A stretch of DNA of 63,477 nt from Lama guanicoe (lineage: Eukaryota): contig MU053611.1 in assembly GCA_013239625.1 (NCBI GenBank), positions 1 to 63,477 of the forward strand, written 5' to 3'. Shown here one piece after another: positions 8,860-63,177 of this stretch. The notes under the pieces were generated by a model, which saw only the letters and a list, made by a program, of their open reading frames with translations, did not search any database and was not told the origin of the DNA. Position 1 is the first letter of the stretch; every line of letters begins with the position of its first letter. Position numbers and translations under genes: made by a program.

Positions 8860-9075
8860 TCAGGGCTTCCAGACAGCCTTCTCTGACTCTCTTATTTGAA
8901 TTCAAAGACATCTTTTTGTGATGTCTTTGTACATATGTATCATAACATTTAATACACTGTGTCATAAATTTTCATGAACGTTTCTCCCTACTCCACCAGA
9001 ACATGAAAAGGGGAATAGATTTTATTCAACTTGTGCCAGCAGGGTCAAGCAGTATGAAATTGTACACTGAGCATG
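8860..9075 (+). mobile_element. L2 3' remnant spanning the 8929 breakpoint
   Basis: Degenerate L2-like 3' end (CTTCCAGACAGCCTTCTCTGAC...TATCATAACATTTAATACACTG). Confidence 0.5.
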
Positions 9076-10174
9076 GTGTATAATTGTTAGTAAAATTTAA
9101 AAAAGAGAATGATGCAGGAAAGTGGGGAGGAAAAGGAGAGAGGGAGGGCAGGAAAAAAAAAAGTGACAGGGAAGGAAGAAATCCAGACTGAACTTTTTGA
9201 GGGTACAGTAACTCTCAAACTTAAGTTTCCAAGCCATTTTGACAGGCTAACTCATTCCTATTGTGATATCCTGATGTTACAATGTTGAAAATTATTCCAT
9301 GGAGCAAGGGTGAGCTATTAATTCTGCTCACCCGCTGACAATTACTTACCTTTCTGTGACAGTACAATGAAGTAGTAATTGTAATTTCAAAGAAGTATGT
9401 AAGAAGCTGTCATACCATAACTCCACCGAAGCAACTGTTATGGTCAATTAGGTGAATAATAATTGCTTTAAAAAGTCGTTAAATAGTTTTAATGATGGAC
9501 ACTAATAGCTCCTTTGGAGCTGTTAGTTGGATCAATAATTCATATTTTAAAAACACTGAAAGTACATATTTTTACATTAGATTATTAGGGTTTCCTCAGT
9601 CAATATCTTCTGAAGTAATAGATTTACATAGTTAGCAGTTTTGTAAGTAATTCAATATATTTCTATGTCAATCAAACAGATTATGATAATTAAAATTAAA
9701 CAGCTCACTCCTTCTAAACCTCTCTGATTGATTATGGAAGTAAAAAGTATGTAGAAACTGAAAAAGTAGAAAATTCTTATTACGTTTTAGAAATAATTTT
9801 TTGTATTTAAATAACTATTTCAAACAATCATAAGAAATCACAATATTGCTGGGTTTTAGTCAAATAGTTCTGGAAGTAAATCTTTTTAACCATCTTCTGG
9901 AAAAAGGTAATCACTGAGAAAATAAAATGTTATATTTTCTTTATAGGAATTTTCAAATAAGTTTTTAGTTATATATTATTCTTATATTGATGTTAAATAA
10001 TATGATTTTTATGAATAGGAGATGGAATCAAATTACGAGTCATATAATTTGGGCAATCCTTATTTTATAGGTTTGTAAAATCCCTTAGCTTCCTTTTTAC
10101 CTAGTTCCCATTGGTTTGCACATTTTATTCTGGGTTGTTTCTATTGTATTTCTAAGAATTACAGTCTTTTTGGA

Positions 10175-10410
10175 TTCAGCAAACATTTATTGATTGATTA
10201 GTATGTGGAATACATTATATACATTTTTTTCTTCAAAAATCATATACTTAACCGGTGTAATAACTCAGAATGTTCAATATTACCTTTTTTATTTTCCTAC
10301 TGAAGAAATTTTGGTTTTAAATGACTCTCTCATTATCACTTAGAAGGTGATTCCAGAACTTGGATTTAGTCTTGTGACCCCAGGTTAAGTGTTTTCTCAC
10401 TAGTACAAAG
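10175..10410 (-). mobile_element. MIR/L2-tail remnant (four copies within the palindrome arms)
   Basis: CAGCAAACATTTATTGA start, TTTTCCTACTGAAGAAATT core and CAGAACTTGGATTTAGTCTTGTGACCCC end. Confidence 0.5.
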
Positions 10411-10719
10411 CTGCTCAGAATTACCCTTTTAATACCCTAGAAACTTTGACAAACCACTGTGAATCACTGCCAGTAGATGAAGGATTTGGGACTCAGCATT
10501 ACCCCCAAGTTCCCTTTCCCTTTCTATTTGAACAATGGCATTTAATGCAAAAGGCAGGATGTTAGTGAAGACTTTTCAAATGTCTCTATTGCACATCTTA
10601 ACATGACCATTTAAGAGCTCCTGTTTATTCTCCCTTCCAAATACCTCATTACCTGTGCCAATCCTGGTTTTCGTTTCTCCTTAAATTTACCATTCTTCCA
10701 TGATGTGAGTGCTTACCTA

Positions 10720-10895
10720 TGTTCTCTCTCCCTCCTCTCTTTCTCCCTCCCCTTCCCCTTTTCCCCCCTTCTCCACCCTCTTGTTTTGTCTCTCTCTCTT
10801 TCCCTTCTGATCACGTTTGCATTCTTTCTCTCGCTCCATCGCTTTTGCTCTGTCTTCTCACTTTCCTCTTCTGCTCTCAGATATCACTCTCTCTG
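10720..10895. repeat. CT-rich polypyrimidine low-complexity tract (copies 15162-15337, 32207-32382, 36649-36824)
   Basis: Almost pure C/T run seen directly. Confidence 0.9.
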
Positions 10896-11159
10896 AGAAT
10901 CTTATAATTCCTCATTCATTCCTATATAGAGCAGTCAGTTCAGCTTTATGTTTTATTCCCAAATGTCAGCACTCAAATCTATCAAGGCCATTAAAATATC
11001 ATTTAAAAGGACACTCCATTTAAAAGGAACAGGCACCTAAGAAGGCAGTTTACTGGTACTTTTCTATTACTGAAACAATCTTAGGGTGGCTAAGAACTAA
11101 ACAAACAGCAAACAGAGAGAGAGGGGCAGATTTCCCCTAGGAAGATATTATCGAATGAG

Positions 11160-11480
11160 ATTCTTCCATTCTTATTACATAACGTTGGTGAGTGTATCAA
11201 GAAACATTAGTGGCGATGCAAACTAGGGTAATATTTCTTGAGGTGACTGTGTATGTATCTGTGTTTTAAAAATTATGTATCTTTTGACCTACTAAATTTC
11301 AATTTTAGTCCTATGTTCTAAGAAAATTATTAGATAAACTGCACATTATCTAGAAAATTAGTGGAACATTGTTTATAAGGGAAATTGGAAATATTATCAA
11401 TAGGTAATTGTTTGAGTGAATTATGGTATAATCTAACAGAACATGGTACATTATTAAAGTAAAAAAGTATATGTATATAT
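11160..11480 (+). mobile_element. Ancient L1 (L1ME-like) 3' ORF2/UTR remnant
   Basis: GTTGGTGAGTGT...TATCTTTTGACCTACTAAATTTCAATTTTAG...TGAATTATGGTATAATC pattern. Confidence 0.55.
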
Positions 11481-11574
11481 TTTTGATGTAATATACAAGA
11501 AATTTATTTCCAGAATTTTTTTTTAAATTATGCTCCAAAAGAATAGCTATGGTATGGGCCATTTCTATGTAATA

Positions 11575-12025
11575 TCAAAATAATTAAGGACTATATTATG
11601 ACAGAGCAGGAAAATGAATATAATCATGTTGCAAAGGGACTGTAAGTGTCTCCCCATGAAGTACTAAAGAAAAGCTTTTGATCCCTCATATTGATAAGGA
11701 TTTAGAAGAGTGCGCTGAGCAGACAGACAGCTGCACACCTAGTATCACGTGCCTCATTATTCTGTCCAGTGAAGACACCTCATCTGGCATGGCAGTTGTG
11801 ATTGGGGCCACCACCGGGCAAAATTTATGGCGCTCAACATCATCTAACGTTAATCATTTGGTTTTTGCAAGGCCCAACAAACGTACTGATTGAAGATATA
11901 ATGGACATCACCACCCTAAACCTTTAAAATCTTTGATGGTGCCATCAATCCCCATGCTTCCTTTTGGGATTATTATTGCTTCTGATTTATGATACTGATG
12001 AGTGAGGGAAATTTCAAGGACTTCA
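11575..12025 (-). mobile_element. ERV-L/class III endogenous retrovirus pol remnant: N-terminal RT (second copy 33062-33512; truncated inverted copies ~14307-14480 and ~35794-35967)
   Basis: Manual minus-strand translation across frameshifts gives KSLKFPSLISIINQKQ..GTIKDFKGLG..LQKPND..HKFCPVVAPITTAMPDEVSSLDRI..ARDTRCAAVCLLSALF*ILINMRDQKLF..HDYIHFPAL. This follows ERV-L RT as I recall it (KIVNQKQY..ATIKDLKDAG..VQKTDG..RKLNQVVTPIAAAVPDVVSLLEQI..WYAAIDLANAFFSIP..HQKQF..GYINSPAL). Confidence 0.85.
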
Positions 12026-12029
12026 TAAA

Positions 12030-12440
12030 AGGGGCTTCAGACCCTTCTCAGGTCAGAGTTGCTGCATTCACAGTTACCAGAGAGCAAGAGAATACCGAGA
12101 GGCACCCAAGTGGGTCATTTGTGTTCAACGTACATTCCTTCCTGCCCCCGTTATGTGGACGCAGTACTGTCTTCCTGCTGGTTAGGGTAAATTACTCCCC
12201 AAAAGAAGATGCCTTCTCCTCTTGGCTCCTAGACACAGGAGTACAAAGTAAGCTGCCATAGCTTACAGTTCAATGGGACCTTTATTGTTTCCCCTGGCAA
12301 GATGGCATCTCCTTTGGCGACCAGGATCTCTAACCCTGCCGCGCTTAGAGTTGTGGGAATGGCATATATTAGGTTCCTCAGTGGGTCATTTAGAATGATG
12401 GCCCACTCCCGCTTCTCTTTTTCTTCCTGGACCCACGTCC
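12030..12440 (-). mobile_element. ERV-L pol C-terminal/dUTPase remnant (second copy 33517-33927)
   Basis: Minus strand gives RGSR..EAGV..LNDPLRNLIYAIPTTLSAAGLEILVAKGDAILPGETIKVPLNCKLW..HNGGRKECTLNTNDPLGCLSVFSCSLVTVN. This matches ERV-L HGSRNQGVE..SDPLAKFLLPVPATLRSAGLEVLVPEGGMLPPGDTTMIPLNWKL..HNGGKEEYAWNTGDPLGRLLVLPCPVIKVN as I recall it. Confidence 0.85.
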
Positions 12441-14306
12441 AGAAAAATTACAACTTCTGCCATTATTAACTAAACTTAACTTAAAATTAACCACTGCCAG
12501 GGCTAGTTCAGTTTGCTGAGAACAAGGTCTATTAATGAAATCTAGAGAAGGTACTTGGTTAGAAAAGGAAAGCGGTAGTATGGATGAAAAGGGCACATGC
12601 TGGGGAGAAAACAGGTAATGCCCTTCCTCAACATAAGGATCATTTTGCCAGATTCATCTGTCATGGATTGTGGCCACTCTTTTTTACGCCTAATAAGTTG
12701 TTTGTGTGACTGAGGTTGGTATGGGGATTTAATGATAAAATACATATGAAATTCTTTGAAAGAATTCTAATTGCAATTAAAGTTTTTATCCTGGGAGCTT
12801 TTTTTTTAATGTAGCAATTCAAGAGAGATGGGTGAGGCCTCCAGGAACTAGTTAATACATATGCTAATCATTGAATAGCCAAGAGTGGCTTGCATTTCCA
12901 ACTTTTTCAGATAGTCATGCAATCAATCGATGTGAGAATGTCAGGGTTTTCAGAAAGTTTGAGGTGATTGGTCTTGACAATGACTTCCAGACTTTCCATG
13001 TTGTAAATGGGATCATGTAAGTGATATGACAGTTTTCACTGGGTTTGGAGAGAATCTTTCCATCATTTTGCTCTGCCTTGGGATGTCATAATTCCCATAT
13101 CATTTAGGTCACACCGCTTCACAGAAATTCAGTTAATTAACTGTGATTGCTTGGGATTTGAGCATTCACTAGAATTTGCATTTTTTGGCATTTGGAAGAC
13201 AGTGTCAGTACTGGTAAATGGGTTCTTTGGGCTTTGTAAAGAGCAGAAATATCTCAGAGGGATTCAGAATTTCAATCAGTGTTCACCTAAACCGGTTCTA
13301 CATTTTTGTCCCTTTATCAAGCAAACTTTCCATTAGATGTACTGTCAGAGATTTTTTTATAGTGTGTTTGAAAGAAAACAGTTCTTCATGAAGATGGCAG
13401 CAAGTGTTTCTTTGAGACAAACACACATGCATCAGTGGTCCCTTAAGAGAGCTGGGCAGATGTGGGGTTTTGATGCCATTTCCTCTTTGTATAAAAAACT
13501 TTCAGAAATTTGGCACAGCCACGGACAGAAAACATGGCTGGCCTGGCCCCTCTAAAGTGACCTTTGTTAGTGGCCTGGCTTTGCACTCTGCAGCATCATT
13601 GCTGATGCACTGAGCCAGTTCACAGGCCACTGGAGCTGGGTTTCCTTCTGAAGGCTGGTGTTGGGTGGAAGCTATTGCTTCATGGTGGGTCCAAGCAGTC
13701 CTTTCTCCTGCTTATTTGGTCTTTTTAGATTTTATATCATTAGTAGAGACCTGGATCCTCTGGTTATTCTATTTTTAATATAAATGAGATAGTATATTAG
13801 AATGCATTTTGCGTTTTGTGAGAGAATGCCTTATAAATATTTACAGTTTTATTTGCTGTAGACTCAAGCCCTCATTGTGTTTTTCTACTCTTTTGTACAC
13901 ATACCATGCAGAGTCTAACAACGTGAAAGACTAGTGAGCAGTCATATTAAGTGCAAATAACCATCATGCTTTACAGCGCATTTATATACATGTTTATGTT
14001 GAAATTTTTCTATAAACAAGATAGAGGACAGTACTTTGGGCCATTATAGATTCCATTATCCTTTCAAATACTGAGCATGGAAATAAGTCTCTTTTATCAC
14101 ATGGGCCAGTTGTGGACCAATGATGTCAGTAGGTTCATTTGTTTAGATGTGCTTGATGAGTAATCAGAAGGTGTTACATTGAGTTCAGTGGAAAGGTTAC
14201 TAGGAAGACTGGCTCTTTTTTGTGACTTGGAAGTTATTTGCTTTCAGTCACCTTGTTCCGGCAGAGATGTAGTAAAGCCTATATTTCTGTAGAGCTAAAT
14301 ATTGAT

Positions 14307-17300
14307 ACGTGATACTAGGTGTGCAGCTGTCTGTCTGCTCAGCGCACTCTTCTAAATCCTTATCAATATGAGGGATCAAAAGCTTTTCTTTAGTACTTCA
14401 TGGGGAGACACTTACAGTCCCTTTGCAACATGATTATATTCATTTTCCTGCTCTGTCATAATATAGTCCTTAATTATTTTGATATTACATAGAAATGGCC
14501 CATACCATAGCTATTCTTTTGGAGCATAATTTAAAAAAAAATTCTGGAAATAAATTTCTTGTATATTACATCAAAAATATATACATATACTTTTTTACTT
14601 TAATAATGTACCATGTTCTGTTAGATTATACCATAATTCACTCAAACAATTACCTATTGATAATATTTCCAATTTCCCTTATAAACAATGTTCCACTAAT
14701 TTTCTAGATAATGTGCAGTTTATCTAATAATTTTCTTAGAACATAGGACTAAAATTGAAATTTAGTAGGTCAAAAGATACATAATTTTTAAAACACAGAT
14801 ACATACACAGTCACCTCAAGAAATATTACCCTAGTTTGCATCGCCACTAATGTTTCTTGATACACTCACCAACGTTATGTAATAAGAATGGAAGAATCTC
14901 ATTCGATAATATCTTCCTAGGGGAAATCTGCCCCTCTCTCTCTGTTTGCTGTTTGTTTAGTTCTTAGCCACCCTAAGATTGTTTCAGTAATAGAAAAGTA
15001 CCAGTAAACTGCCTTCTTAGGTGCCTGTTCCTTTTAAATGGAGTGTCCTTTTAAATGATATTTTAATGGCCTTGATAGATTTGAGTGCTGACATTTGGGA
15101 ATAAAACATAAAGCTGAACTGACTGCTCTATATAGGAATGAATGAGGAATTATAAGATTCTCAGAGAGAGTGATATCTGAGAGCAGAAGAGGAAAGTGAG
15201 AAGACAGAGCAAAAGCGATGGAGCGAGAGAAAGAATGCAAACGTGATCAGAAGGGAAAGAGAGAGAGACAAAACAAGAGGGTGGAGAAGGGGGGAAAAGG
15301 GGAAGGGGAGGGAGAAAGAGAGGAGGGAGAGAGAACATAGGTAAGCACTCACATCATGGAAGAATGGTAAATTTAAGGAGAAACGAAAACCAGGATTGGC
15401 ACAGGTAATGAGGTATTTGGAAGGGAGAATAAACAGGAGCTCTTAAATGGTCATGTTAAGATGTGCAATAGAGACATTTGAAAAGTCTTCACTAACATCC
15501 TGCCTTTTGCATTAAATGCCATTGTTCAAATAGAAAGGGAAAGGGAACTTGGGGGTAATGCTGAGTCCCAAATCCTTCATCTACTGGCAGTGATTCACAG
15601 TGGTTTGTCAAAGTTTCTAGGGTATTAAAAGGGTAATTCTGAGCAGCTTTGTACTAGTGAGAAAACACTTAACCTGGGGTCACAAGACTAAATCCAAGTT
15701 CTGGAATCACCTTCTAAGTGATAATGAGAGAGTCATTTAAAACCAAAATTTCTTCAGTAGGAAAATAAAAAAGGTAATATTGAACATTCTGAGTTATTAC
15801 ACCGGTTAAGTATATGATTTTTGAAGAAAAAAATGTATATAATGTATTCCACATACTAATCAATCAATAAATGTTTGCTGAATCCAAAAAGACTGTAATT
15901 CTTAGAAATACAATAGAAACAACCCAGAATAAAATGTGCAAACCAATGGGAACTAGGTAAAAAGGAAGCTAAGGGATTTTACAAACCTATAAAATAAGGA
16001 TTGCCCAAATTATATGACTCGTAATTTGATTCCATCTCCTATTCATAAAAATCATATTATTTAACATCAATATAAGAATAATATATAACTAAAAACTTAT
16101 TTGAAAATTCCTATAAAGAAAATATAACATTTTATTTTCTCAGTGATTACCTTTTTCCAGAAGATGGTTAAAAAGATTTACTTCCAGAACTATTTGACTA
16201 AAACCCAGCAATATTGTGATTTCTTATGATTGTTTGAAATAGTTATTTAAATACAAAAAATTATTTCTAAAACGTAATAAGAATTTTCTACTTTTTCAGT
16301 TTCTACATACTTTTTACTTCCATAATCAATCAGAGAGGTTTAGAAGGAGTGAGCTGTTTAATTTTAATTATCATAATCTGTTTGATTGACATAGAAATAT
16401 ATTGAATTACTTACAAAACTGCTAACTATGTAAATCTATTACTTCAGAAGATATTGACTGAGGAAACCCTAATAATCTAATGTAAAAATATGTACTTTCA
16501 GTGTTTTTAAAATATGAATTATTGATCCAACTAACAGCTCCAAAGGAGCTATTAGTGTCCATCATTAAAACTATTTAACGACTTTTTAAAGCAATTATTA
16601 TTCACCTAATTGACCATAACAGTTGCTTCGGTGGAGTTATGGTATGACAGCTTCTTACATACTTCTTTGAAATTACAATTACTACTTCATTGTACTGTCA
16701 CAGAAAGGTAAGTAATTGTCAGCGGGTGAGCAGAATTAATAGCTCACCCTTGCTCCATGGAATAATTTTCAACATTGTAACATCAGGATATCACAATAGG
16801 AATGAGTTAGCCTGTCAAAATGGCTTGGAAACTTAAGTTTGAGAGTTACTGTACCCTCAAAAAGTTCAGTCTGGATTTCTTCCTTCCCTGTCACTTTTTT
16901 TTTTCCTGCCCTCCCTCTCTCCTTTTCCTCCCCACTTTCCTGCATCATTCTCTTTTTTAAATTTTACTAACAATTATACACCATGCTCAGTGTACAATTT
17001 CATACTGCTTGACCCTGCTGGCACAAGTTGAATAAAATCTATTCCCCTTTTCATGTTCTGGTGGAGTAGGGAGAAACGTTCATGAAAATTTATGACACAG
17101 TGTATTAAATGTTATGATACATATGTACAAAGACATCACAAAAAGATGTCTTTGAATTCAAATAAGAGAGTCAGAGAAGGCTGTCTGGAAGCCCTGATGA
17201 TACAGAACCTGCGACTTTTTGGAAAGAAGCCTGTTCAAGTAGGTCTGGAGGGAGAGGGTGTATCTGTCCATGGCCCATGGCAAGGAATCATATTTGACTT

Positions 17301-20300
17301 ATTCCAACCTCTAACCTTCAAGTAAATTAAACTTTCCTGTTTTGGATTTACCAGAAGCAAATGCAACTCCTACTGTCTGTCTCTTAATTAAGAATTGACA
17401 TTCACTTTGACTAATGCCACACTTAACTAGTAAGATACTTGTTGCAAGAGAATACCACGCATGCATTAAAAAAAAAAAAAGCTATTCCTAGTTTGGAAAG
17501 CTTAGCAGACTGTCAGGTCTTGCTCTCCCCTTGACATCTTAACACCGCCGCAGGGTATTTAAAGACTTCTATCTGGCCTTTCTGAAGCTTAGACAAGAAA
17601 GACAGATAGAAGGCTGGTGAATTTGTGGTGAGGTAACACATGAGTCACCTATTGTTGCTGATCCTGGCGTCTCCTACTGTTTATTTATTTGAATTAGTGT
17701 CATGGTTTCTACAGATGTGGAGGACAGTCACTCAAAATGTCCTTGCTTCACTTACTCAATAGTAAGTCATCTCCTCCTCCAATTACTGACAAGGAAGAGT
17801 AGGGTGGTGAATCAGCTACTGACAGGATTTATGATAGCAGGAGAAGTCTGGAATTAGAGGATCCATTCGCACTAGGGAAGTAAGTCAAACAGAGGAAGAC
17901 AAATAAATTGTATCACTTATATGTGGAATCTGAAAAAAGGATACAAATGAACCTATTTACAAAACAGAAATAGACTCAACAGACAGAGAAAGCAAACTTA
18001 GGGTTACCAAAGCGGAAATGGGAGGGGAGGGATAAACTAAGAGTTTGGAATTAACAGATATACATGTTGAGTACTATATACAAAATAGATAAACAAGATT
18101 TACTATATAGCACAGGGAACTATATTCAACATCTTACAATAACCTAAAATGAAAAAGAATCTGAAAAAGATATATATATACACGTACACACACACACGCA
18201 CACACATAGCTGAGTCATTTTGCTCTCTACCTGAAATTAACACAACACTGTAAATCAGGTATACTTCAATTTAAAAAAGCTAAAGAAAAAAGAAGACGAG
18301 ATGAAAAGAGTCATGGGAATGAATGGTGGTGAGTTGCAAAACAATGTGAATGTATTTAATACCACTGAACTGTATGCTTACCACGGTTAAGATAGTAAAT
18401 TTTTTATTAGTTATATTATGTGTATTTTGCCACAATAAAAAAGAAGCAGAGGAAAAATAGAAAATGAGAGTATAAAGAACTATTTGAGAGGCAGAATTGT
18501 ATTTTAGGATCAATTTAATATGGGTATGAAAGAAAAGGAGGAGTCTCTGGTGTATCTTTTATTTCTGAGTTGTGTAATTGAATGAGAAAAGTGGACATTC
18601 TCTGATTCAGGAAAAACCAGAGCAGTGGATTTTTTGGCTGGAGGAAGGGTGACAGGCTAGGTCATGTGTTTGTTGTTAGACTTGTTGATTCCAAGATGTC
18701 TGTTGCTGTCTAGTTTACGACGTCCAATAGGCAATGAGAAGTATGGACGTGGGCCTGAGGGGAAAGGTCTGAGTAAGGGATATTGGAGACATAAATTTTG
18801 AGTCATAAAATTTGAAGTCATAAATAGGAGTCATAAAATTTGAGCTTAAAGCTGTAGGGGTGACAAGGAGAATGCCAAAGAGGATTAGACAGCAGGAGAG
18901 CAGTTTCAAGCTGAGGACTGAATCCTGGTTACCCCTCTGTGAATGGGGCAAGTCATGGAAGAGTAGTCCTGCAATAGTGAAAAACTGTCACAAAAGGCAG
19001 AAAAGGGATTAGGAGAGACTGAGATCATAGGACAAAAAGAAGGATAAGATCTCAAAAGAGGAAGAAAGAGCCTTAAGCAGTAGCAAACGGTACAGAAAAA
19101 AAATATGTAAAAGAATGACATTCATTCATAATTAGGAAGTATGAATAGTTTCAGCAGAAGGTTGGGCACAGAATAAGTCTGGCTAAATAAGAGTGAATTG
19201 ATAAGGAAATGTCAATGACCAGGGGAGATAGCTAGTTCAGATATGACCCAGACATATAATTCATGCTTGATTTAAAAGGGAGTAGAGAATAAAGGCTGTA
19301 ACCACAGGGAGATGCAGGATGCTTAGATGCAGTCTAAAGCAATTTTTTTTGTTGTTTATTTTTATATTCTCTTGTTTTGATTTTAGATGGGAGACATTTA
19401 GGTCTGTATTTCACTTCAAAGGCATGAGGGTAGAGAGAGAGATTGAAGGTTCATGATAACATAAGAAATAATTAGAAGAAGTGTGGGCTTCTTAATATAG
19501 GTGGTTTATTAACCCAGAACCAAAGAAGGAATAACATTTCTGACAATATAGCAGAAAAGAAAATTAAGAAACACTTGGGAGTTCGTGCCTAATGGCCTCT
19601 ATTAGGAGGGAGAATAGTATCGTTACAAGCTGAGGCTCTGAGGAAAGAAAATGTGGGTTCAAATCCCAGTCACATCATTTGGGAAAGTTGCTTAGGGTTT
19701 TTCAAGCCTGTTTTCCCATTTGGAAAAATTGAGGCAATATGTGTTTAATTAAGAAAATATATGTCAGGTGATTAATGCATTGCCCAGTGAGTGATCAAGT
19801 CTGAGGCAATCACCAGTGGCATGAAAGAAGTCAGCTACACGGTGGAAGTTTAGTGAGTAGGATGGGGATTTGGGGAAGTTGCTTGACTACAAGATGTATC
19901 CCATGGCATTAAGAATTTTCTGAATGAATTTGGGAGACCAGTGATGCCATTCTTCACCTATAGCAGGCTAGAGCACCATATTATTTTGCAGCTTTCATCT
20001 CATTCTTTCTGCACGCACTCTCGTATTTACACAGCTTTAACGGCTCTCCATTAAGGTCTGTTTTTTTCAGCTTATATCTGTTGAGTAGCATCTACATGGC
20101 AGGCACTGTTCCAGACTCTGAGGACACAGGACTGAATTTAAAACAGCCAAACTTTCTGCCCTTGTGGAATTTCAGTTAAGCAGGAGAATTATAACGAGCA
20201 AGTGAAGTAGACAGCATGTTAAATGGTAGAAAATGTGAAGGAGAAAAAACGTGGAAATGGGGGAAGCAGGGCAAGCATGTCAGATAGGACGACTGTTGAA

Positions 20301-26470: not shown

Positions 26471-26584
26471 GAGAATTTGAATACAGAATCCATTTGCAAC
26501 TTGAGAAAAGAATTTAATAAATAGAACCTTAAATATAAATATTTAATAGAAGTAAACAGCATTTCTCTACTTGGCACTTATTTT

Positions 26585-27674: not shown

Positions 27675-28040
27675 CAAGCATTTATTCAATAACAGTTTTG
27701 AATACTTAATATGTGCCAGGAAATGGGCTAGATTCTGAGGATATAAAGATGCGTATCGGTGGAGCATACACAAAGTGAACCAGCAAGTACAGCACACGAT
27801 GTAATACTTACTATGTTAGTCATACGTCCAGGCGCATGACAGGCTCCTTAGCTGTTTAAGCTTTTGATGACACGGAGCATGTGGTGTTTTAGGGAAAGTT
27901 TCTCAGAAGGGTTGTTTAAGTTGAGAACTAAGGAGGAGTAGGAGTTAGTGCACAGAAGAGAGTTAAAAAGAGTTCTGGGTAGGTACCTCAGTGTCAGTGT
28001 GGCAGGTTCAGACATACATAGTGCTAGATGAGACAAATGA
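27675..28040 (-). mobile_element. L2 3' remnant (copy ~49162-49527)
   Basis: CATTTATTCAATAAC..TACTTAATATGTGCCAGG..CTAGATTCTGAGGATATAAAGATG. Confidence 0.7.
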
Positions 28041-38615: not shown

Positions 38616-41600
38616 AAAGACATCACAAAAAGATGTCTTTGAATTCAAATAAGAGAGTCAGAGAAGGCTGTCTGGAAGCCCTGATGATACAGAACCTGCG
38701 ACTTTTTGGAAAGAAGCCTGTTCAAGTAGGTCTGGAGGGAGAGGGTGTATCTGTCCATGGCCCATGGCAAGGAATCATATTTGACTTATTCCAACCTCTA
38801 ACCTTCAAGTAAATTAAACTTTCCTGTTTTGGATTTACCAGAAGCAAATGCAACTCCTACTGTCTGTCTCTTAATTAAGAATTGACATTCACTTTGACTA
38901 ATGCCACACTTAACTAGTAAGATACTTGTTGCAAGAGAATACCACGCATGCATTAAAAAAAAAAAAAGCTATTCCTAGTTTGGAAAGCTTAGCAGACTGT
39001 CAGGTCTTGCTCTCCCCTTGACATCTTAACACCGCCGCAGGGTATTTAAAGACTTCTATCTGGCCTTTCTGAAGCTTAGACAAGAAAGACAGATAGAAGG
39101 CTGGTGAATTTGTGGTGAGGTAACACATGAGTCACCTATTGTTGCTGATCCTGGCGTCTCCTACTGTTTATTTATTTGAATTAGTGTCATGGTTTCTACA
39201 GATGTGGAGGACAGTCACTCAAAATGTCCTTGCTTCACTTACTCAATAGTAAGTCATCTCCTCCTCCAATTACTGACAAGGAAGAGTAGGGTGGTGAATC
39301 AGCTACTGACAGGATTTATGATAGCAGGAGAAGTCTGGAATTAGAGGATCCATTCGCACTAGGGAAGTAAGTCAAACAGAGGAAGACAAATAAATTGTAT
39401 CACTTATATGTGGAATCTGAAAAAAGGATACAAATGAACCTATTTACAAAACAGAAATAGACTCAACAGACAGAGAAAGCAAACTTAGGGTTACCAAAGC
39501 GGAAATGGGAGGGGAGGGATAAACTAAGAGTTTGGAATTAACAGATATACATGTTGAGTACTATATACAAAATAGATAAACAAGATTTACTATATAGCAC
39601 AGGGAACTATATTCAACATCTTACAATAACCTAAAATGAAAAAGAATCTGAAAAAGATATATATATACACGTACACACACACACGCACACACATAGCTGA
39701 GTCATTTTGCTCTCTACCTGAAATTAACACAACACTGTAAATCAGGTATACTTCAATTTAAAAAAGCTAAAGAAAAAAGAAGACGAGATGAAAAGAGTCA
39801 TGGGAATGAATGGTGGTGAGTTGCAAAACAATGTGAATGTATTTAATACCACTGAACTGTATGCTTACCACGGTTAAGATAGTAAATTTTTTATTAGTTA
39901 TATTATGTGTATTTTGCCACAATAAAAAAGAAGCAGAGGAAAAATAGAAAATGAGAGTATAAAGAACTATTTGAGAGGCAGAATTGTATTTTAGGATCAA
40001 TTTAATATGGGTATGAAAGAAAAGGAGGAGTCTCTGGTGTATCTTTTATTTCTGAGTTGTGTAATTGAATGAGAAAAGTGGACATTCTCTGATTCAGGAA
40101 AAACCAGAGCAGTGGATTTTTTGGCTGGAGGAAGGGTGACAGGCTAGGTCATGTGTTTGTTGTTAGACTTGTTGATTCCAAGATGTCTGTTGCTGTCTAG
40201 TTTACGACGTCCAATAGGCAATGAGAAGTATGGACGTGGGCCTGAGGGGAAAGGTCTGAGTAAGGGATATTGGAGACATAAATTTTGAGTCATAAAATTT
40301 GAAGTCATAAATAGGAGTCATAAAATTTGAGCTTAAAGCTGTAGGGGTGACAAGGAGAATGCCAAAGAGGATTAGACAGCAGGAGAGCAGTTTCAAGCTG
40401 AGGACTGAATCCTGGTTACCCCTCTGTGAATGGGGCAAGTCATGGAAGAGTAGTCCTGCAATAGTGAAAAACTGTCACAAAAGGCAGAAAAGGGATTAGG
40501 AGAGACTGAGATCATAGGACAAAAAGAAGGATAAGATCTCAAAAGAGGAAGAAAGAGCCTTAAGCAGTAGCAAACGGTACAGAAAAAAAATATGTAAAAG
40601 AATGACATTCATTCATAATTAGGAAGTATGAATAGTTTCAGCAGAAGGTTGGGCACAGAATAAGTCTGGCTAAATAAGAGTGAATTGATAAGGAAATGTC
40701 AATGACCAGGGGAGATAGCTAGTTCAGATATGACCCAGACATATAATTCATGCTTGATTTAAAAGGGAGTAGAGAATAAAGGCTGTAACCACAGGGAGAT
40801 GCAGGATGCTTAGATGCAGTCTAAAGCAATTTTTTTTGTTGTTTATTTTTATATTCTCTTGTTTTGATTTTAGATGGGAGACATTTAGGTCTGTATTTCA
40901 CTTCAAAGGCATGAGGGTAGAGAGAGAGATTGAAGGTTCATGATAACATAAGAAATAATTAGAAGAAGTGTGGGCTTCTTAATATAGGTGGTTTATTAAC
41001 CCAGAACCAAAGAAGGAATAACATTTCTGACAATATAGCAGAAAAGAAAATTAAGAAACACTTGGGAGTTCGTGCCTAATGGCCTCTATTAGGAGGGAGA
41101 ATAGTATCGTTACAAGCTGAGGCTCTGAGGAAAGAAAATGTGGGTTCAAATCCCAGTCACATCATTTGGGAAAGTTGCTTAGGGTTTTTCAAGCCTGTTT
41201 TCCCATTTGGAAAAATTGAGGCAATATGTGTTTAATTAAGAAAATATATGTCAGGTGATTAATGCATTGCCCAGTGAGTGATCAAGTCTGAGGCAATCAC
41301 CAGTGGCATGAAAGAAGTCAGCTACACGGTGGAAGTTTAGTGAGTAGGATGGGGATTTGGGGAAGTTGCTTGACTACAAGATGTATCCCATGGCATTAAG
41401 AATTTTCTGAATGAATTTGGGAGACCAGTGATGCCATTCTTCACCTATAGCAGGCTAGAGCACCATATTATTTTGCAGCTTTCATCTCATTCTTTCTGCA
41501 CGCACTCTCGTATTTACACAGCTTTAACGGCTCTCCATTAAGGTCTGTTTTTTTCAGCTTATATCTGTTGAGTAGCATCTACATGGCAGGCACTGTTCCA

Positions 41601-44600
41601 GACTCTGAGGACACAGGACTGAATTTAAAACAGCCAAACTTTCTGCCCTTGTGGAATTTCAGTTAAGCAGGAGAATTATAACGAGCAAGTGAAGTAGACA
41701 GCATGTTAAATGGTAGAAAATGTGAAGGAGAAAAAACGTGGAAATGGGGGAAGCAGGGCAAGCATGTCAGATAGGACGACTGTTGAATAAGTACCCGACA
41801 GGTGAGGGACCAAGTCATGCAGGTCACTGAAGAAGTCCAAGCACCTCTGAACAGCACGTCCAAAGGCCCTGAGGCAGAAGGGCACCTGGCATGGTCTAGA
41901 AACACTAAGGCCAAGCTGACTGAACAAACTGAAAAAGGAGGTGTTAGAAAGGCAGTGGGGCAATGGAAGGATGTCGTGCTTTGGCTCTAAGTGAGAGGGG
42001 AAGCCCTGATACCATTTTAAAAGCCTGCTCTGGCTGTTGTGTTTAGCAAGGGAGAAAAAGATAAGCAGATAGACCAGTTAGGAGGCTATTACAACAGTGC
42101 AGGCAAGAAATGCTGATGGCTCGGACTGACTGGTAGCATTAGGCAGTGAAAAGTGGTTGGAGTCTGCATACGTCTGGGAGGTAAAGCCGAGTTTAAGGCA
42201 GCAGTTATGAAAGTGGTGTTGTGATGTCCAGCTCTCTGACTGCTGCACGTGGCTCTCACTTGCTTCTAAAGATGGAGACAAAAGACAGGTATTAAGTATA
42301 CTTCAACTTCCAAATTCCCTTTTGTTCATTTCTGACCTCTGACATCATAAGTTTCACAACATACCGTGCCTTAAAAATGTTTGTTTGTTTGGTTTTTTTT
42401 TTTGAGTAATTTATTCCAGGGTAAATATTCAGAGTTTAGTCTAAAAAATAACATTGAATGCCTTGACCTTATGCAAATGAGAACCTCTCTTAATCTCAAT
42501 TTTTCCAGTGACAGAATCAGGGTATTCATTTCTGCCATTCCACATTCCTTCACAGGTGTATTCAGGTCAAAACGAATCACGTATGCTGTAGAAAATGTCA
42601 TTTTTCATTGGTATCGCTTCTCATATATAAGCATCTTCCAAAGCAGTGCTTTGCCTTTTACAATTTTTCGGTCCTCCATGGGGATAACCAAGTTGTCCGA
42701 TTTTTTATTGATTTTTAGCCCTCAGCATGACAGAGCAATTAGTAGAAACTAGAAAAAGCTAGAATTGATTATTCCCAAATTACTAGTAGTAGAGATTGAC
42801 CTTAGCTATGTTACACATAAAAATTATTTTGAAATAAAATCACAACCAATATAACTTTTTTAAGGTTTCTTTATCTTAACAAAATGTACTTATCTTACTT
42901 ACTTGTCCCATTCAGTCCTCCTGCAGAATTTTGAAGTACACAAAGATTATATGCTAACACTTAAAGGCATATTATTAACAATTGATATTGCTGTTGGAAT
43001 GACCATACACTCATTATGAAGTGGAAGAGAGTCAAGTTATTAATTCACAGTCCTGTGATTCTTTATGATTTACTCAAGCAAATCGTTACAGATATTTCTT
43101 TGTTAGAAATTAGCCACTTTGGATTTAGATGGAAAAATAAAGCTATGTAGGTAAAAATCCCGTAGAGAACTGGTTTTGGTATCAACATTAAACTCATTTC
43201 ATTTTTAAAAATATTTATTTTCATAATGAGCTGCATATACAAGTTAGAAAGCCACTTGATTGTAGTGCATTATCAGTTGTCCAGAATTTTAAGCTGTTTC
43301 AGGAAGGTCATTACCAGGCTGTCAGTTTAAGTAAATAAGTAGTGCTATTGAATGATTTGACCTTCAAGTAAAATAAGTGGGAATTCATCTACTAGGGTTT
43401 TTAAATAAATACAACTGTAAAATGTTTGAGAATGAATATGATTTTTCCCATTCGTTTTGACATTTTGAAAATAAGCCTTACAAAATTTTCTTCCTTTTAC
43501 ATTAGTTCCTAGTAATTTGTATGATTTATACTTTCCTGAACCACGTACTTGATAGAAAGTGTTAAATTATATGATACTCTAAAACAATGGGAAGCCACAG
43601 AAATTGCATGCACTATCAAAAATTTACTTAGGAAATGAGAGTTTGGTCGTTTCACTGTTACTCATCTTTTAGAAGACATTCAGCAAACGCATGTGTCTGT
43701 TTAAAGGACAGACTCTATGTAACAAGAAATTCCTTATTCAGAAACAGTCTGGTTTCTGTCTAAGCCCTGTGTCTAGAAGTTTCGGTCAGTCCTCCATCTC
43801 ACACAGGCTGAGTGACTAATATAAAATGTTGACAACACTCCCTGACACGTTTGAAGGCAATGTAGTTAAGTATAAATAGGATCAGAAAGCAGATAATCTC
43901 ATTCAGTCAACAAATGCTCTGAGGACCCACTATGGGCTGGGCACTGCATCGACACTGGGGAATGTGTCAGGTATCCAAGAGCCTTAATGCTCTATTTCAA
44001 AGATGCACATTTTTTTTTTCACATTTTACCGTCTCTGACATTGTGGTACCTCTTACAGCAAACAATTGGTATCTTAGCTTCGATGAAACATGGTCATTTT
44101 AATTCCCTTTACTAAGATAGCATTTTTAAAAGGACAATAAGTAAACTAAACTGCCTGGAGTGAAGACCATGGTGATTAAATGTATGAGTAAATCTTGATC
44201 CTTTTCTTACATCACTGTGTGAGAGATCTTATGCTGATGTTTAAATACCGTACTTTTAATAATGTGTGTGTATGTGTTCAAGCACTTTAATTTCTCAAGT
44301 TGTGAGCTACCTGAAGTCAAGGATACCATGTTCTTCTTTTCCCTCCTGTGAAGAATAGACACTCATTGCATATGTATGAATGGAGACGTGATCATTGAGA
44401 CTTGAGCTACAAAAGGAAGCATCTTTCATCTTTATCCCATTTAATTTGTATTTATATTCCACAAATAATAACTTGATACTTGGTAAGGAGTCATTTGCTT
44501 CTATTTTTAACTATATAGGTATTTTCACAGAGTGTATGTGTGCATGCATGTGCGTGATTGCGTGTGTGTATGTACCATTTTCTTTATTATGGTTAAAATC

Positions 44601-47600
44601 CAGATTCAATAATAATGTGTCAGTATTTATATTCACTTGAAGATAATGAAACATTTCGACCTGATGCTGTATTTGCATTTGGAAAAATACAAGGTTAGAA
44701 GTTATAATTTAAATAATTGTAGATATTTGGGACTTGTTCAAAATCATGACTGAGTCTACAGAGTATTGTGAACTCTTATTTTGGGTTCTTTCTTAATATA
44801 AAGCACATAATAAGCCACAGCTAAATGTTTGGGCATCAGCTAAGGCTATGTTCCCAGCTAGCCAAATTTTCTTTTCTGACCCAGGGTTTTGTGTGTCTTC
44901 ATGTAGCCTCTGAAATGGATCTGTGCACACTACCAAGACTTTCTTCCCCTTTGTTGTCAAATGGACAGACAATCCCACAGATATGGCTTGTATGATTTCT
45001 CAGAAAGCCCCTTTTCATCTTTTAGAAATTCAACTTGGTTCAGGGGAATTTCAACTATAAGAGCAAGCATCTTGCTTGTGCTGTTGTAAATAAGGATTTT
45101 GGTTTTGCAGCTCAGGGAGTGCCCCAGCTTCCAGAACCTTCTGCACTACCCGCTCTTCTGAAGACTCACAAAGGAAGTATTCTTTCTCCTCTTCCCACAC
45201 ACCCTTCTACTCCATCCTCTCAAGCTTTGTCAACCTTTTAATCTAGTTTTTATTTTGTGGGTTTAACTGTCCCATTTTCATAAAAATTGATTTGCTGATT
45301 TTGTGTTTGGTGTTTTTCATCGCTTTTTGGGTAATTCTCAGGAAGGAAAGCAAGAAATGCCAGTTTTACCCCATCATCCTTAAATCAGATATTCTCTGGA
45401 AGTGTTTCTGTTAAAGCAGGAACCATTGGATGTAGTTTTACTGTGAGTAAAATAACTTTCTAAGGAACTGCTATCAGGATTAATTGATGATCGGCTAGCA
45501 GTTCTCCGCGTATTTATTCCTCTCGGAATTCACTGAGTTAGTGCTACTTCCTTACCGCTGCCTCTAGGCTCTGGGGAAACCACATTTTAAACTGGATTCT
45601 ACCCTACCAGAAATTACATAAAATCCCCATTACTGTCTCCAAAGTTGAAGCAAACAGGTTGGCTACCACTGAGGAAGGGCATTTTGCTATTTGTCCACTC
45701 TCCCCCAACCACCCTGTAAACACAGCAGAGTATTTATCTATCTTTGGACAATTGTCATTCTAAATATTAGCCTTTCATCCTGCCTACTGGCCGTGTTTAT
45801 GATCCATGTCATCAGTAGTGTATCGGGACACAGGATTACTCTTATTATGGTTTTATTTGGTTTTGTTTTAAGCATTCTACTAATTAGATTGGATTTCAGC
45901 TCCAAGTACTTATATTTTAAACTTTTCTAGTCTTTGGGAGATTTACAACCCAGTAATTTCTTAGCTTTCTCGTGGGTGCTCTGCTGCTGGTTGACTTCCC
46001 GGTTGTGACTCTGAACCTCACTGAACTTCAAGACCTGGAAATACACACACTCAGCACTGACTACTTGGTTCTAAACCCTGAAACTGTGGTCTGTGCCTCA
46101 GCAAACCAAATGTGAGCATCTTACCAGTGTAAACAGAACACACTGCCGCTAATTCTCTGCTATGGCAACCACCGTTGAGTGAGCTCTGCGCATCCTCAGA
46201 TGCTTTCTGCATAGCTAAGAAAATCAGTGTAACATTCTCCGTAGTCTTTAGGCGTTAAGTAGAAGCTTTCAGTTGAGCACCGACCATGTCAGCTTAAAGC
46301 AGATCATGTTTCAAGAATCAAGAGAAGCACAACATGAAAAGCAAAGGAAGAGTGCCAAACTGTGGCTGAGTGAACAGCTGTGGCCTAGATCTAGAGGAGC
46401 TGTAACAGTGGTGCTCCCGATTTAAAACGACTTCTGTGAAAATTCTGAATGGCAGATCTCAGACAAGCTATATTTAAACATTCACGTATAAAGTTAGCTT
46501 TCTTTTCTATCCAGAGCAGTAGCGGACAGGAATTCAAAGCTTGGCCTCCTAGACAACATCTCACAAGCTCTTCTGTATTTCTTTGTACCTCTCGGTTTAT
46601 CTCCCTATAAATTAATTGTGGATGTTTATATAGTTAGCACTTGAGAATTGGTCAACTTAACATTAATATAATGGTAGAAATTCTGATTGTTATTGAAAAC
46701 TTTTTTAGTAGGTTTAAAGAATAAGACCTATTTTGTGTTGAGGAATTGTTATAAACATTTATCAGAAATTACATATACAACATCATGAATAAAGGTGTTT
46801 TACAGCATACAAATATATTAAAACTAAATTAAGACAGACTGAATTTCTAATGGATGGACTAGTCAGTTTGCTGTGTTTTTGTTTTTAATTGAAGAAGTGA
46901 GGCGGTTGTTTAATTGTTGAGGAAATTGGTTCACTGAGGTCTTCTGTGTAATAAGAAAAGGCAGGAGATCATTAGTGTAAACTTGGAGTGAAGAGCATCT
47001 TTTTACAAAGGTAATAAGCCCAGAATATGTAAAGACAAAATACAGACATATGTGACTATATACAAAAGAATTAAAAGGTATGATACATACATTATAAACA
47101 GAGTCCAACGACATGTGATAGACTGAGAAAAATATTGGCAAAATATGGGTCAGATAAAAGGTCAGCAATCCAGCCACCACCAAATGGCTATAGATCAAGA
47201 AGAAAAAGACAACCAACCTAAAGAAATACCAATCAATTATATGAGTAAGAAGCTTATAGATGTAGAAATCAAAATGTTCAGTGAATCTATGATTTCCCAA
47301 GTTTATTCATAGCCTGAGAAATGCAAATAAAAGGAAGAATATGGTGCTATTTTTAAACTATCAGACTGGTCAAACTTTGAGATATATCGTCCACTGCTAG
47401 TAAAAACATGGATAAATGTACATCCTACTTTACTGCTAGTCAGAGTGTAAATTGCTGCAAACATTTTGGAAGCTAGTCTGGGAATATCTATTAAAACTCA
47501 TATTAAGTGAACCTTTTGAAATGGCCCAGTTTGGGAAGCATTCCCATAGCAATTAAATAATTAGGATCTAAGAATACGCATACACAGACACACACTTGGA

Positions 47601-50600
47601 TATTATCGTAGCATTATCCATAGGAAAAATTAGTACAGAAAACAACAAAAATAGACAAGGGTAGGTAAATGATTGAATCAAAGGGTGTTGCTTTCATTCA
47701 ATGTGATAGTCAACAATTATTAATAAGTATGTGTTTAATCAATAGCTATTCAAATGGAAGAGTACCCAGGATATACTGTTAAAAGGAAAAAGAAGTTGCA
47801 ATATGTGTACAAAATGGTCTGGTTTTAATAAAACAAATAATTGCAAAAATAAGGGCACCATTCATATGGGTTTATAGGTTTGTGTATATTTTTTTAAGCA
47901 TGAGGAAAAGAGTGTATGGATAACGTCACTAAAACTGGTAATTTTGCAGACAGGGATGAGAATTTGAATACAGAATCCATTTGCAACTTGAGAAAAGAAT
48001 TTAATAAATAGAACCTTAAATATAAATATTTAATAGAAGTAAACAGCATTTCTCTACTTGGCACTTATTTTAGTGTAAGGAATGAGATAGGAATCAAACT
48101 TTACTTTCTCAAAGATTAGTTAGTTGTCTGAGCACCCTTTATTGAATGGCCCATCTTTTCGCCAGTCTGAAATGTTATCTTGTACGAAATCCTCATATTA
48201 ATCTGTCTCATTCTGTACTGCTATTTATTTCATGGCTTTAATTTCTGTCACTTTAAAAAACAGTCTATTATAAAACTGAAAAACTCAGTCATTACTCTTA
48301 TCACAGTTTAGTTAGATCCCACCACACATGAAATTTGGCATATAAAGTTATTTATCATTTTGTCAAATTCAAAAAAAATTCTACTCAACATTTGATTAGG
48401 ATTGCATTTCATTTATAATTTTGTTTAGGGAAAACTAATATCTCACTATATTCAATAGTTCTTTCCCCAAAGTATGTATTTTTATTTATTCAAGTATTCT
48501 TCCAGGACATTAGAAAATTTTTTGTTTTCTTCCTATCTGTTATGCACATTTTTTATTTGTGAATGTGTTATGCAAGTATGAAATAAGCTATCTGATTCAG
48601 CCTTAGTTGAACAAAACTAAGCATACTATTTAAGTTTGAGCCCAAATAATTCAAGAAACTACCAGACATGCTTTAGTGGCTATAAAACATGATTCAGTGG
48701 TTGGAGCTGATTCTTAATCCATAATGTATTCCATGTCCTTACAATTTCTAATTGTTGCTTTATTCTAAGTTCTTTATTTTTTAGTCTTATTCTTTATTCT
48801 CACTTGCCTCATGACAATAATTTTTCAGTATGTATGAGGGAAAAGATCATGGAACTGAAGTCAGTCACAATTTTTGTTAAGTCCTTCAGAAAATTTCTAA
48901 ATAGAATATAGTACATTTCTCAATTTATAGTTTATTGAGTTACAGTCTTACATATAATAAGCATTTTTAAATGCCTTTGTCTATATTTGAGATAAATTTC
49001 AAAATGAGTATCTATAATGTAAAAATATCTTTAAAGTCTAAAAGCAAAGAATAGGAGTGTGGTATAACAGCATAGTACTACACCCCAAACCAGTAAATTA
49101 GTCTGAATTTTCTTTTTTTTTTTTTTTGCTGTATACCAAATTTACTGAACAAACACTTATCCAAGCATTTATTCAATAACAGTTTTGAATACTTAATATG
49201 TGCCAGGAAATGGGCTAGATTCTGAGGATATAAAGATGCGTATCGGTGGAGCATACACAAAGTGAACCAGCAAGTACAGCACACGATGTAATACTTACTA
49301 TGTTAGTCATACGTCCAGGCGCATGACAGGCTCCTTAGCTGTTTAAGCTTTTGATGACACGGAGCATGTGGTGTTTTAGGGAAAGTTTCTCAGAAGGGTT
49401 GTTTAAGTTGAGAACTAAGGAGGAGTAGGAGTTAGTGCACAGAAGAGAGTTAAAAAGAGTTCTGGGTAGGTACCTCAGTGTCAGTGTGGCAGGTTCAGAC
49501 ATACATAGTGCTAGATGAGACAAATGAATGTTTGACTTTGCTGTGTCCTTTGTTACCTTTTCAAACCGAGGAAATGGTGAAGAAAATCCAATAATACCTA
49601 CACTGTACACATAATACTTGCAGATGTTAAAAAAAAACGTTGGTCTTCAGTGATAAAATGGTAAAACACCTGTTGGCAAAACAGATATAACTATAGTTAT
49701 ACATTCTCAATATATCAAAAGTTTTAACATCTATTTTACAAACTTTGAAACATCTTTGGTTTAGAATTTCCTCTATTTGGTCTTTTTCTATCCTTAAAGC
49801 ATTTAATAATTCTGAACCAATATTTTACCCAAGTTTTTAATAAATCACTTAAAGACAACAAATGGATATGATCCCAATTAAATAACTAAGTAAGGTTTCA
49901 ATGCAGAATAGTTTTCTTAAAATGAGACAAGCTGAAATAGAATTGATACATTTATAATGTGAGAAAGTACCAAAATATTTAAATGCAGAGGCTTGCAGAA
50001 AAGTAAAAAGCCAAGACTTCAAAAGGATCAGAAAGGGCAAACAAAATAGTCTTTTTGGCACAACAAATACTAAGTAATTCAAATAATATCAATAATATTA
50101 AGTACATTTGTGTTCCTTGTAGCAAACCCTTACATTCTCAACATAAACTATCTAGTCTCATTATACCTTTGTCCTCTGTGTCCTCCATGCAAATAGTCAT
50201 GTTCATGCAGCATTCTTTCCTTTATTGTTATAGCTTCAGTGGTTGAAGTGTTGACCCACTTCCTTCAAGAGCTGCCTCAAGGTCTTCTTCTTCAGGAAAC
50301 TTTCTGTTAGCATTCTAACCCACATCAATCTTCCCATTCTCTGAAATACCAATATTATCAATATCATGCATTTTTGGCATCATTCCTCAGATAGTGATTG
50401 AGTGGTGCCTACACTGTGCTAGGTGCCAGGGAAGCAATGATAAATAAAGCGTGACTCCTTCTCTCAAGTTGCTCACAGTCTAATCAGGGAGACAGACATG
50501 GGAAAAATTACAATGGCAAGTGCTTTGTTAAACATATTCAGAAAATGCCATTAGGGGAACAGAGGCTGGAGTAGTTTGTTTAGTCATAGTCTATTTTTAT

Positions 50601-51268
50601 TGTTTCATGTGCCATGTATACTTTCATTTTTCTCTTTTTTGCCCCCTAGCTCACAGCAGACACCATAATACAGAATATCTTGTCATCTGTTCAATTAAGT
50701 GTTTGAATATATTTCCATGAGAAAAATAACAATGTCTTTGTAACTTTTCTGTAAATCTAGAACTGTTCTAAAATTTAAAAACTTATATAAAAATAACACA
50801 AAGGACTATGTTTTTGTCTAAAAAGAAGTAATACTGATAAATAAATCAAGTTCCCATTCAGTCCACATATATTTCCCCTCTTCTTAGTAATTTTGACTAT
50901 TGTTCTCAGAGCCTATTACCTCTTTCCCACATCCATTTTTTTTGTCTAAAATTCCCCTGCATTCCTCTAAATTAGTTAAAACCTGCAAGAAGATGCAAAT
51001 TGATTAACGTGCAGCAGTTTAAACATGAGCACTAATTCCAATTTTGAAAAATAAATGTGGCCATTTTTAGCATTAGAACTTGGAGACATCAGTTGGCTAC
51101 ATGTGCATATGGAACCTAAATGCCAAATGTCTGACTGTTAGGCCAGTTTCACCCTTAAAAAAAAACAAAACAAAAAGAGAGAGATTCCTCATTCTTTGTG
51201 GAGGCAACCTGAGATAACAGAATGCTCCCCACCTTATAACAGTTTTCTTGCACCTCCTAGAATGTGGT

Positions 51269-51768
51269 TGTATCAGTTTCCTCTCGCTGTGATAACAAAT
51301 TACCTCAAACTTGGTGGCCTGAAACAACACAAATTTATTATGTTTTAGTTTGGGAAGCCAGAGCCCAAAATGGGTCTTAATGGGCTGAAAAGCAAGTGTC
51401 AGTAGGCCTGAGTTTCTTCTGATGGTTCTGGGGAAGATTTGCTTCCTTACCTTTTCCAGCTTCTAGAGACCACCCACGTTCCTTGGCTGGTGGTCCCACT
51501 CCTCTGTCCTCAAAGCCAGCAACATTGAACTGAGTCCTTCTCACACTGCTGACTCTGATTCTCGCTCTTCTGCCTCCCTCTTCTGTGCTTTCCTTGTGAT
51601 CACACTGAGCCCACCTGGGTAATCCAGGCTAATCTCATCTCGAAGTCAGCTGATTGGCCAACAGTTCCATCGGCTACCTTAAATCCCCTCTGCTGTGGAA
51701 CCTAACATTTTAAAAGGCTTTGTGGATTAGAACATGGATATCTTTGGAAGACCTTTGTTATCTCTAGC
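51269..51768 (-). mobile_element. MaLR solo LTR, MLT1-type (duplicate in tandem unit 2)
   Basis: Matches 29782-30281 at offset 21487. Confidence 0.9.
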
Positions 51769-52149
51769 ATTGTGCTGATAAAATATCTGCCCTCCTCTGA
51801 TTAGACAAGACAGCACCAGCTTTCCAGGGTCCTGCAGAGAGTGGAAACAAGACTCAGTCCCCTCTCTGCCCTTAGAAAATACAGCACCATGGATTACCAT
51901 TCGTGGTGAGTAATGAGAACTCTTACTTCCCCTTGTGAGTTAGGGATTCTACCTTTCTCAGAAGGTACATCTCTTGATTCTGTCTTCTGTGTGATAATCC
52001 TCACCGGATTAAACACAGAAGAACTTGTTTTCAATTTTCCCTTTGGAAGTCAATTTTGACAATTTTAATGATAAGAGTATCAGTCAAGATTTTACTCTGA
52101 TCATCAAATTAAAGCTGATCCTGACTAGACACTGGTATTGAGAAAATTC

Positions 52150-63175: not shown

Positions 63176-63177
63176 AT

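Follow-up and report, generated by a model that had tools for sequence, protein, structure and literature searches.

The contig MU053611.1 of Lama guanicoe (assembly GCA_013239625.1) carries a compact and complex rearrangement. In the stretch that was analysed (63,477 nucleotides of the forward strand, hereafter called the window), two tandem units of 21.5 kb are preceded by a further inverted arm, into which pieces of nearby sequence have been inserted. At least six abnormal junction types exist in the window, in addition to a 24-bp patch, and four of these types lie in the mosaic of the left flank. Judged from the sequence, there is about an even chance that all of them arose in one recent germline replication accident, with many template switches and with the newly made strand copied once more.

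Layout of the window and the tandem unit

The segments across the window are ordered as D', e, c', f, r1', b and S; b' and R; b and S; b' and R; and a unique right flank. Strands are given relative to R and the right flank, minus meaning inverted. In the first unit (8929-30414; 21,486 bp), b (8929-11750, minus; identical to the reverse complement of 14307-17128) is followed by the fold-back spacer S (11751-14306, minus), the forward copy b' (14307-17128, plus), and R (17129-30414, plus). The second unit (30415-51901; 21,487 bp) repeats this order with b (30415-33237, minus), S (33238-35793, minus), b' (35794-38615, plus), and R (38616-51901, plus). Segment lengths are 2,822 bp for b and for b', 2,556 bp for S, and 13,286 bp for R. 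The right flank (51902-63477, plus) is single-copy. When 8927-30414 is aligned with 30413-51901, the two are 99.963% identical over 21,490 columns (self-alignment within the assembly only). Judging by their length and identity, these matches cannot be due to chance, and the tandem is real in the assembly. The original prediction of a tandemly amplified 21,487-bp unit, reading b, S, b', R twice before unique sequence, is thus borne out inside 8929-51901.

Counts of 31-mers in the window, before any native copy outside it is added, give S two copies, b four, the first 829 bp of R three, the part of R at 18216-25502 three, most of the remaining R two, and the right flank one. The copy number of 2-3-2 that had been predicted does not agree with these counts (S 2, b 4, R 2-3).

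The two units differ in eight columns, which make up six events: a 1-bp deletion at 30423, an A-run longer by two at 30642, A>G at 30899, A/G at 11846/33333, TT/GA at 20917-20918, and A/G at 21780. Three of them are private to the second inverted b (30423, 30642, and 30899) and two to the first R (20917-20918 and 21780), while the two copies of S differ only at 33333. So few differences agree with the earlier view that the event is recent. All five polarisable differences among the b and R copies are found inside one contiguous stretch, from the first R to the second b. Drift would not be expected to cluster them in this way, whereas a single error-prone pass, or a single different template, would.

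The inverted left arm and its mosaic

Positions 1-11750, which the original prediction overlooked, form a further inverted copy with three templated pieces (497, 115, and 200 bp). The part at 8100-11750 is the exact reverse complement of 14307-17957 and extends 829 bp beyond the b first described. Another part, 1-7285, is an inverted copy of about 18216-25502 with 99.5% identity and runs off the left edge of the window. It consists of the outer part of D' (1-888, minus; an inverted copy of R at about 24614-25502 with zero differences), the 24-bp patch (889-912, plus; in place of about 23 bp of ancestral sequence), and the inner part of D' (913-7285, minus; an inverted copy of about 18216-24589).

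Between D' and r1' the inverted track loses 261 bp, and these are replaced by e, A, c', A, and f. The first piece, e (7286-7782, plus), is an exact 497-bp copy of 28898-29394 and is joined bluntly to D'. The second, c' (7784-7898, minus), is an exact 115-bp inverted copy of 18037-18151 with an untemplated A on each side (7783 and 7899). The third, f (7900-8099, plus), is an exact 200-bp copy of 29387-29586, and it begins with the 8 bp (TCCCCTCT) with which e ends. Around c' the inverted track skips 64 and 79 bp. All three pieces are sourced within 12 kb. Next to f, with a blunt join, is r1' (8100-8928, minus), the inverted first 829 bp of R, which continues into b through an ancestral join.

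The claim that only two novel joins are needed therefore holds inside 8929-51901 and fails for the whole window, where at least six junction types and the patch are found. Since r1' lies before the first b, the R-b junction repeats the unit instead of forming one half of the original triplication, and the founding inversion was larger, with its outer junction off the window. It had been proposed that a 2-3-2 DUP-TRP/INV-DUP formed through R-b and S-b' and was later expanded by unequal crossover. This history has the right ancestral order, and b S b' R b S b' R does fit inside 8929-51901. It predicts R before the first b, however, while in the window that place is taken by r1' (the ancestral neighbour of b, in inverted orientation), the mosaic, and D'. 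It also leaves four junctions and the patch unexplained, and positions 1-8928 contradict it unless the flank is misassembled. This makes it very improbable.

Ancestral and derived junctions

The b-S join and the S-b' join can be told apart by an old relic. A frame across b-S, with its stops read as X, was searched exhaustively against 1.84 billion proteins and gave two matches. One of them, P0001 (an unnamed protein known from a single contig), gives a gap-free alignment of 66 residues with 53% identity from 11847 to 11647, spanning 11750/11751. Its alignment extends in b to 11568, and at the S-b' sites only the b half aligns. A word-indexed protein search with the same frame passed none of 11 candidates. 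The decayed retroelement relic (11568-11847, minus) presumably belongs to an ERVL-type reverse-transcriptase region. Because a decayed retroelement relative aligns across b-S without a gap, b-S is supported as the ancestral join and S-b' as the derived one, which upholds the predicted ancestral order S' b' R unique. An exact 30-base scan for the b-S join in metagenome contigs, where host DNA is not expected, returned nothing.

The end of the window's young LINE-1 gives a second marker. It aligns in R over 196 columns, unbroken across 17957/18036, and only in pieces in the mosaic. With an old LINE-1 3' end intact in R and cut in the mosaic, the mosaic is the derived arrangement. The junction of R with the unique flank is taken as ancestral, given that three times in the window b' continues into R; we infer that the right flank is the original continuation of R.

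The derived S-b' junction is present twice in cis in the assembly (14306/14307 and 35793/35794), at the right end of each copy of S. R-b, found once (30414/30415), is also derived, as had been claimed; its two sides share 2 bp of microhomology (TT), and one base is deleted 8 bp into b. D'-e is blunt, with CTCAG common to both sides near the join as an imperfect likeness only. One untemplated A exists at each of e-c' and c'-f, and f-r1' is blunt. Five junctions have both of their donors inside the window, and these show 0-2 bp of microhomology; S-b' has none on its one testable side. Within about 300 bp around four joined breakpoint pairs, the longest common word is 9-10 bp and lies off the joins, so that no repeat pair above 10 bp exists near these four tested pairs; the outer junction is outside the window.

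Blunt joins, 1-bp insertions, or a 2-bp microhomology with a nearby 1-bp deletion are the marks that support a single replicative event. The scant microhomology counts against it as well, since 0-2 bp suits end joining equally; blunt joins, untemplated bases, and similar marks are ascribed to NHEJ or alt-NHEJ in PMC6258378. Over-replicated or hairpin-derived copies might have been broken and re-ligated by end joining, with a fill-in of the polymerase-theta type making the patch. The three blunt joins and two single untemplated A's would suit such a course, and the 8-bp overlap of e and f looks like a filled-in staggered cut around c'. On the other hand, both interleaved tracks retain their original order and orientation, a net copy gain with a repeated junction requires DNA synthesis, and iterative switches are taken as a mark of FoSTeS/MMBIR in PMC5120786. 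End joining is quite unlikely as the explanation.

The 24-bp patch and the tract behind it

In the patch (889-912), about 23 ancestral bases are swapped for 24 bp that can be covered end to end by words of 7-9 bases, each present within 15 bp of the R-unique, e-start, or S-end breakpoint. The piece CGTGGTGA equals 51902-51909 and starts exactly at the R-end break, ATGGATT sits just before that break, GATTGAG sits just inside the start of e, and the S-end piece AGAGCTAAA equals 14291-14299. All four of these templates lie on the plus strand of the window. In a test designed after the matches had been seen, all 24 bases were covered by words of at least 7 bases within 20 bp of 11 breakpoints (p = 0.00055 against 20,000 real 24-mers and 0.0001 against shuffles; post hoc). 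The value weakens with looser settings, to 0.004 at 30 bp, 0.014 at 50 bp, and up to 0.19 for 6-mers; over all 18 settings it ranges from 0.00005 to 0.19 against real 24-mers. As a side observation, the first eight of the ancestral bases lost to the patch (24605-24612) form a word that also occurs across the b-S breakpoint (11749-11756).

Since its four pieces share one strand and one of them starts exactly at 51902, the breaks at the R end, the S end, and the start of e would be tied to one time. This bears on a two-step history, in which an inverted triplication with spacer S and the mosaic formed first and a later simple tandem duplication of 8929-30414 copied S-b'. Such a history is rather unlikely but deserves attention. 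R-b resembles an ordinary head-to-tail junction with a 2-bp microhomology, and the distinct variants of the middle copy could mark another chromosome. Interrupted palindromes are described as unstable and prone to secondary rearrangement (PMC10766186), and Beck et al. give a two-step alternative for their own case (PMC4352052). Against it, the patch in the inverted arm has two pieces within 12 bp of the R-end break, which should not yet have existed in step one. The patch, although its test is post hoc, favours re-entry in the same event over a later tandem duplication: its pieces combine sequence beside the R-end and S-end breaks with sequence from the mosaic.

Right behind the patch, nine of the ten substitution events of D' are found in 912-2567, that is, in 1,656 of 7,282 bp (simulated p = 0.0004). 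Eight of the nine single changes are transitions, in both directions, and the tract has a divergence of 0.55% within an otherwise near-identical inverted copy. No clear template was found for a 4-base change at 1789-1792. A value of P = 0.0005, computed for the identical inner arm, was discarded since the differences of D' are clustered and not uniform. By its pattern of changes the tract looks like a second haplotype, perhaps one with another ancestry if the animal was admixed. To bring three versions of D onto one molecule would take an inter-homolog switch together with new errors, or else recombination at a later time. This haplotype-like tract counts against a single event, as does the lack of an independent carrier among the 20 sequencing runs described below.

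A proposed course of events

In the single replication accident, the first switch to the backward direction would be placed left of the window. The strand copying backward would stall at 889, take short primers from three other broken ends, and resume in register. At 7285 it would begin to switch to and fro between the track copied backward and another, 11 kb away, copied forward, producing e, c', and f; in doing so it would skip 64 and 79 bp of one track and step back 8 bp on the other. It would then copy r1', b, and S and fold back where b' begins, so that S remained as a spacer of 2.6 kb. After R, the strand might re-enter the b already made via the 2-bp microhomology and so close a loop of 21.5 kb. 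Copying of this loop once more would repeat S-b', and the strand could exit by homology and continue into the right flank. With a native copy left of the window, the dosage would be three for S, five for b, and three to four for most of R. Any effect would fall on nearby regulatory DNA, and most likely there is none.

Search for other carriers

Words of 7240-8140 (871 in number, 122 of them spanning junctions) were sought in public sequencing runs, and a non-carrier is expected to contain a share of 0.86. Twenty runs with such words, from eight studies and among 24 listed rows, contain shares of 0.83-0.87 (15 runs at 0.87 and none higher). Six organism codes are represented among these runs, each of which has about 2.0-2.15 billion letters. 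Mosaic junction words are found in none of the 20 listed runs; S-b' and R-b lie outside that query. The pieces of the mosaic are thus widespread without its joins. The arrangement is therefore rare, private, or an artefact, and the earlier expectation that it is probably polymorphic finds no support among the listed runs. Even in a true carrier, short junction pieces may drop out of Logan contigs; the source makes two differing statements on contigs shorter than 150 bp (10.1101/2024.07.30.605881).

It is unlikely, though clearly worth weighing, that the structure is no germline allele but partly or wholly a product of assembly, or comes from a clone that arose in somatic tissue or in culture. 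The lack of mosaic junction words in all 20 listed runs from eight studies would agree with this, and haplotype mixing could explain why one contig has three versions of D. The unit is also about as long as one accurate long read. Yet S-b' occurs twice with distinct nearby substitutions, which a single chimeric read cannot give, and the junctions bear biological marks (the 8-bp back-step and the patch derived from breakpoints). The possible loss of short pieces from Logan contigs would also weaken the argument from the runs. A chimera from proximity ligation was considered and rejected: a tested restriction site exists within 8 bp at two of the eight joins, in no pattern, and the other six joins have none.

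Gene content and significance

The window is CpG-poor with 36% G+C. As had been claimed, it appears non-coding: Pfam searches of the longest 150 of 177 stop-to-stop frames of at least 45 aa, from its non-redundant, non-LINE part, gave seven matches with E up to 0.05 and none at the curated cut-off. Rfam gave no match in 30000-63477. The best of the Pfam matches, HCO3_cotransp at 43066-43269 on the minus strand (E = 5.6e-5, below the cut-off; E = 0.016 to SLC4A11 in PDB), was rejected as too diverged for a real exon, and its likeness to the membrane domain of SLC4 bicarbonate transporters is likely due to chance or a very old relic. The same SLC4-like stretch of 38 residues is also found at 21579-21782 and, inverted, in D'. 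In the right flank, 33 bases between a pyrimidine-rich AG and GTAAG (53180-53212) look conserved by eye and are a candidate micro-exon. The decayed LINE-1 at about 55230-61510 is nearly full-length and has stops, frameshifts, and several short internal duplications (for example 56381-56408 and 59047-59118); we take it to be of camelid type.

A segment of b' at 16540-16900, present also in three other copies, is rich in TAAT and TGACA and has an enhancer-like look. The best 300-bp window, in b', has five TGACA sites versus about 0.85 expected, which is not significant over the region. The A>G at 30899, in the second inverted b, falls within a TGACAG and changes it. Since no gene can be named in the window, a gene-dosage effect of the rearrangement is conjecture. 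The fullest reading, a camelid germline allele that records the whole path of a single burst, with a patch from three broken ends, a haplotype switch behind it, and a five-fold b that changes enhancer dose for a visible trait, is decidedly improbable.

The locus belongs to a known class of complex rearrangement, and its scar is unusually detailed. Its biological weight is low for now, because no gene, second carrier, or linked trait has been identified. Provided that it is real, it gives a small example, resolved to the base, of a kind of mutation that is known mostly from human patients. With a patch made from other breakpoints, one-step rolling-circle copying could be distinguished from recombination at a later stage; Beck et al. 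(PMC4352052) could base the argument only on pedigree stability and parsimony. If the single-burst reading is true, the repeated junction is dated to the inversion event, and this would be direct sequence evidence for rolling-circle re-copying.

Comparison with known rearrangement classes

The junction figures of the human papers sit in supplements and may contain comparable patches. Among the titles and abstract openings listed by searches on camelid structural variants, subscription papers excluded, none describes such a locus.

In ODIRA (Brewer et al. 2024, PMC10766186), as in the window, an interrupted palindrome serves as an unstable precursor, and secondary events lengthen the spacer. 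Primary ODIRA junctions, in contrast, are found at inverted repeats of about 5 nt that are 40-80 nt apart, while the spacer in the window is 2,556 bp and S-b' has no microhomology on its testable side.

DUP-TRP/INV-DUP, found at MECP2 and other loci (Grochowski et al. 2024, PMC11293582), likewise has an inverted segment among direct copies, and here b and S lie inverted between forward R and forward b'. Its second junctions resemble those of the window, with 0-2 bp of microhomology, 1-bp or templated insertions, and blunt ends. While that class has two junctions and a 2-3-2 profile, the window has at least six junction types and up to four copies of b. Its typical junction between inverted repeats is not seen at any testable junction here, the outer junction lying off the window. 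The family resemblance seen in the original prediction is thus fair, but the copy profile and the two-junction rule fail. The locus works like a DUP-TRP/INV-DUP extended by re-copying and is not a strict member.

In human chromoanasynthesis (Gu et al. 2016, PMC5120786; Bahrambeigi et al. 2019, PMC6902434), gains are accompanied by templated insertions from nearby loci and by blunt joins. Insertions of 376 bp from three loci and of 861 bp from two flanks are described (PMC5120786, PMC6902434), and blunt joins occur beside long templated insertions (PMC5120786). The window similarly has clustered gains of at least triplication in the assembly and long templated insertions (e 497, c' 115, and f 200 bp). 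Microhomology above 4 bp, expected at some junctions of that class (PMC5120786), is not found, since it is 0-2 bp here. The human cases are clinical and megabase-scale, whereas the rearrangement in the window involves about 19 kb of ancestral non-coding camelid sequence.

The closest single case is the triplication-quadruplication at PLP1 in patient P113 (Beck et al. 2015, PMC4352052), in whom one junction exists in two copies and a new point change lies near a junction, read as rolling-circle MMBIR amplification. The window shares with P113 a junction present twice, several template switches, copy number steps above three, and a small change beside a junction, and for both a two-step alternative is considered. 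The circle in P113 is about 280 kb, compared with 21.5 kb here, one of its junctions lies between inverted low-copy repeats, and it was studied with family and copy-number data, compared with one assembly for the window. Only the window has the interleaved chain of three pieces and the patch from other breakpoints. The most fitting label for the locus is that of a small chromoanasynthesis-like gain, of the same type as P113.
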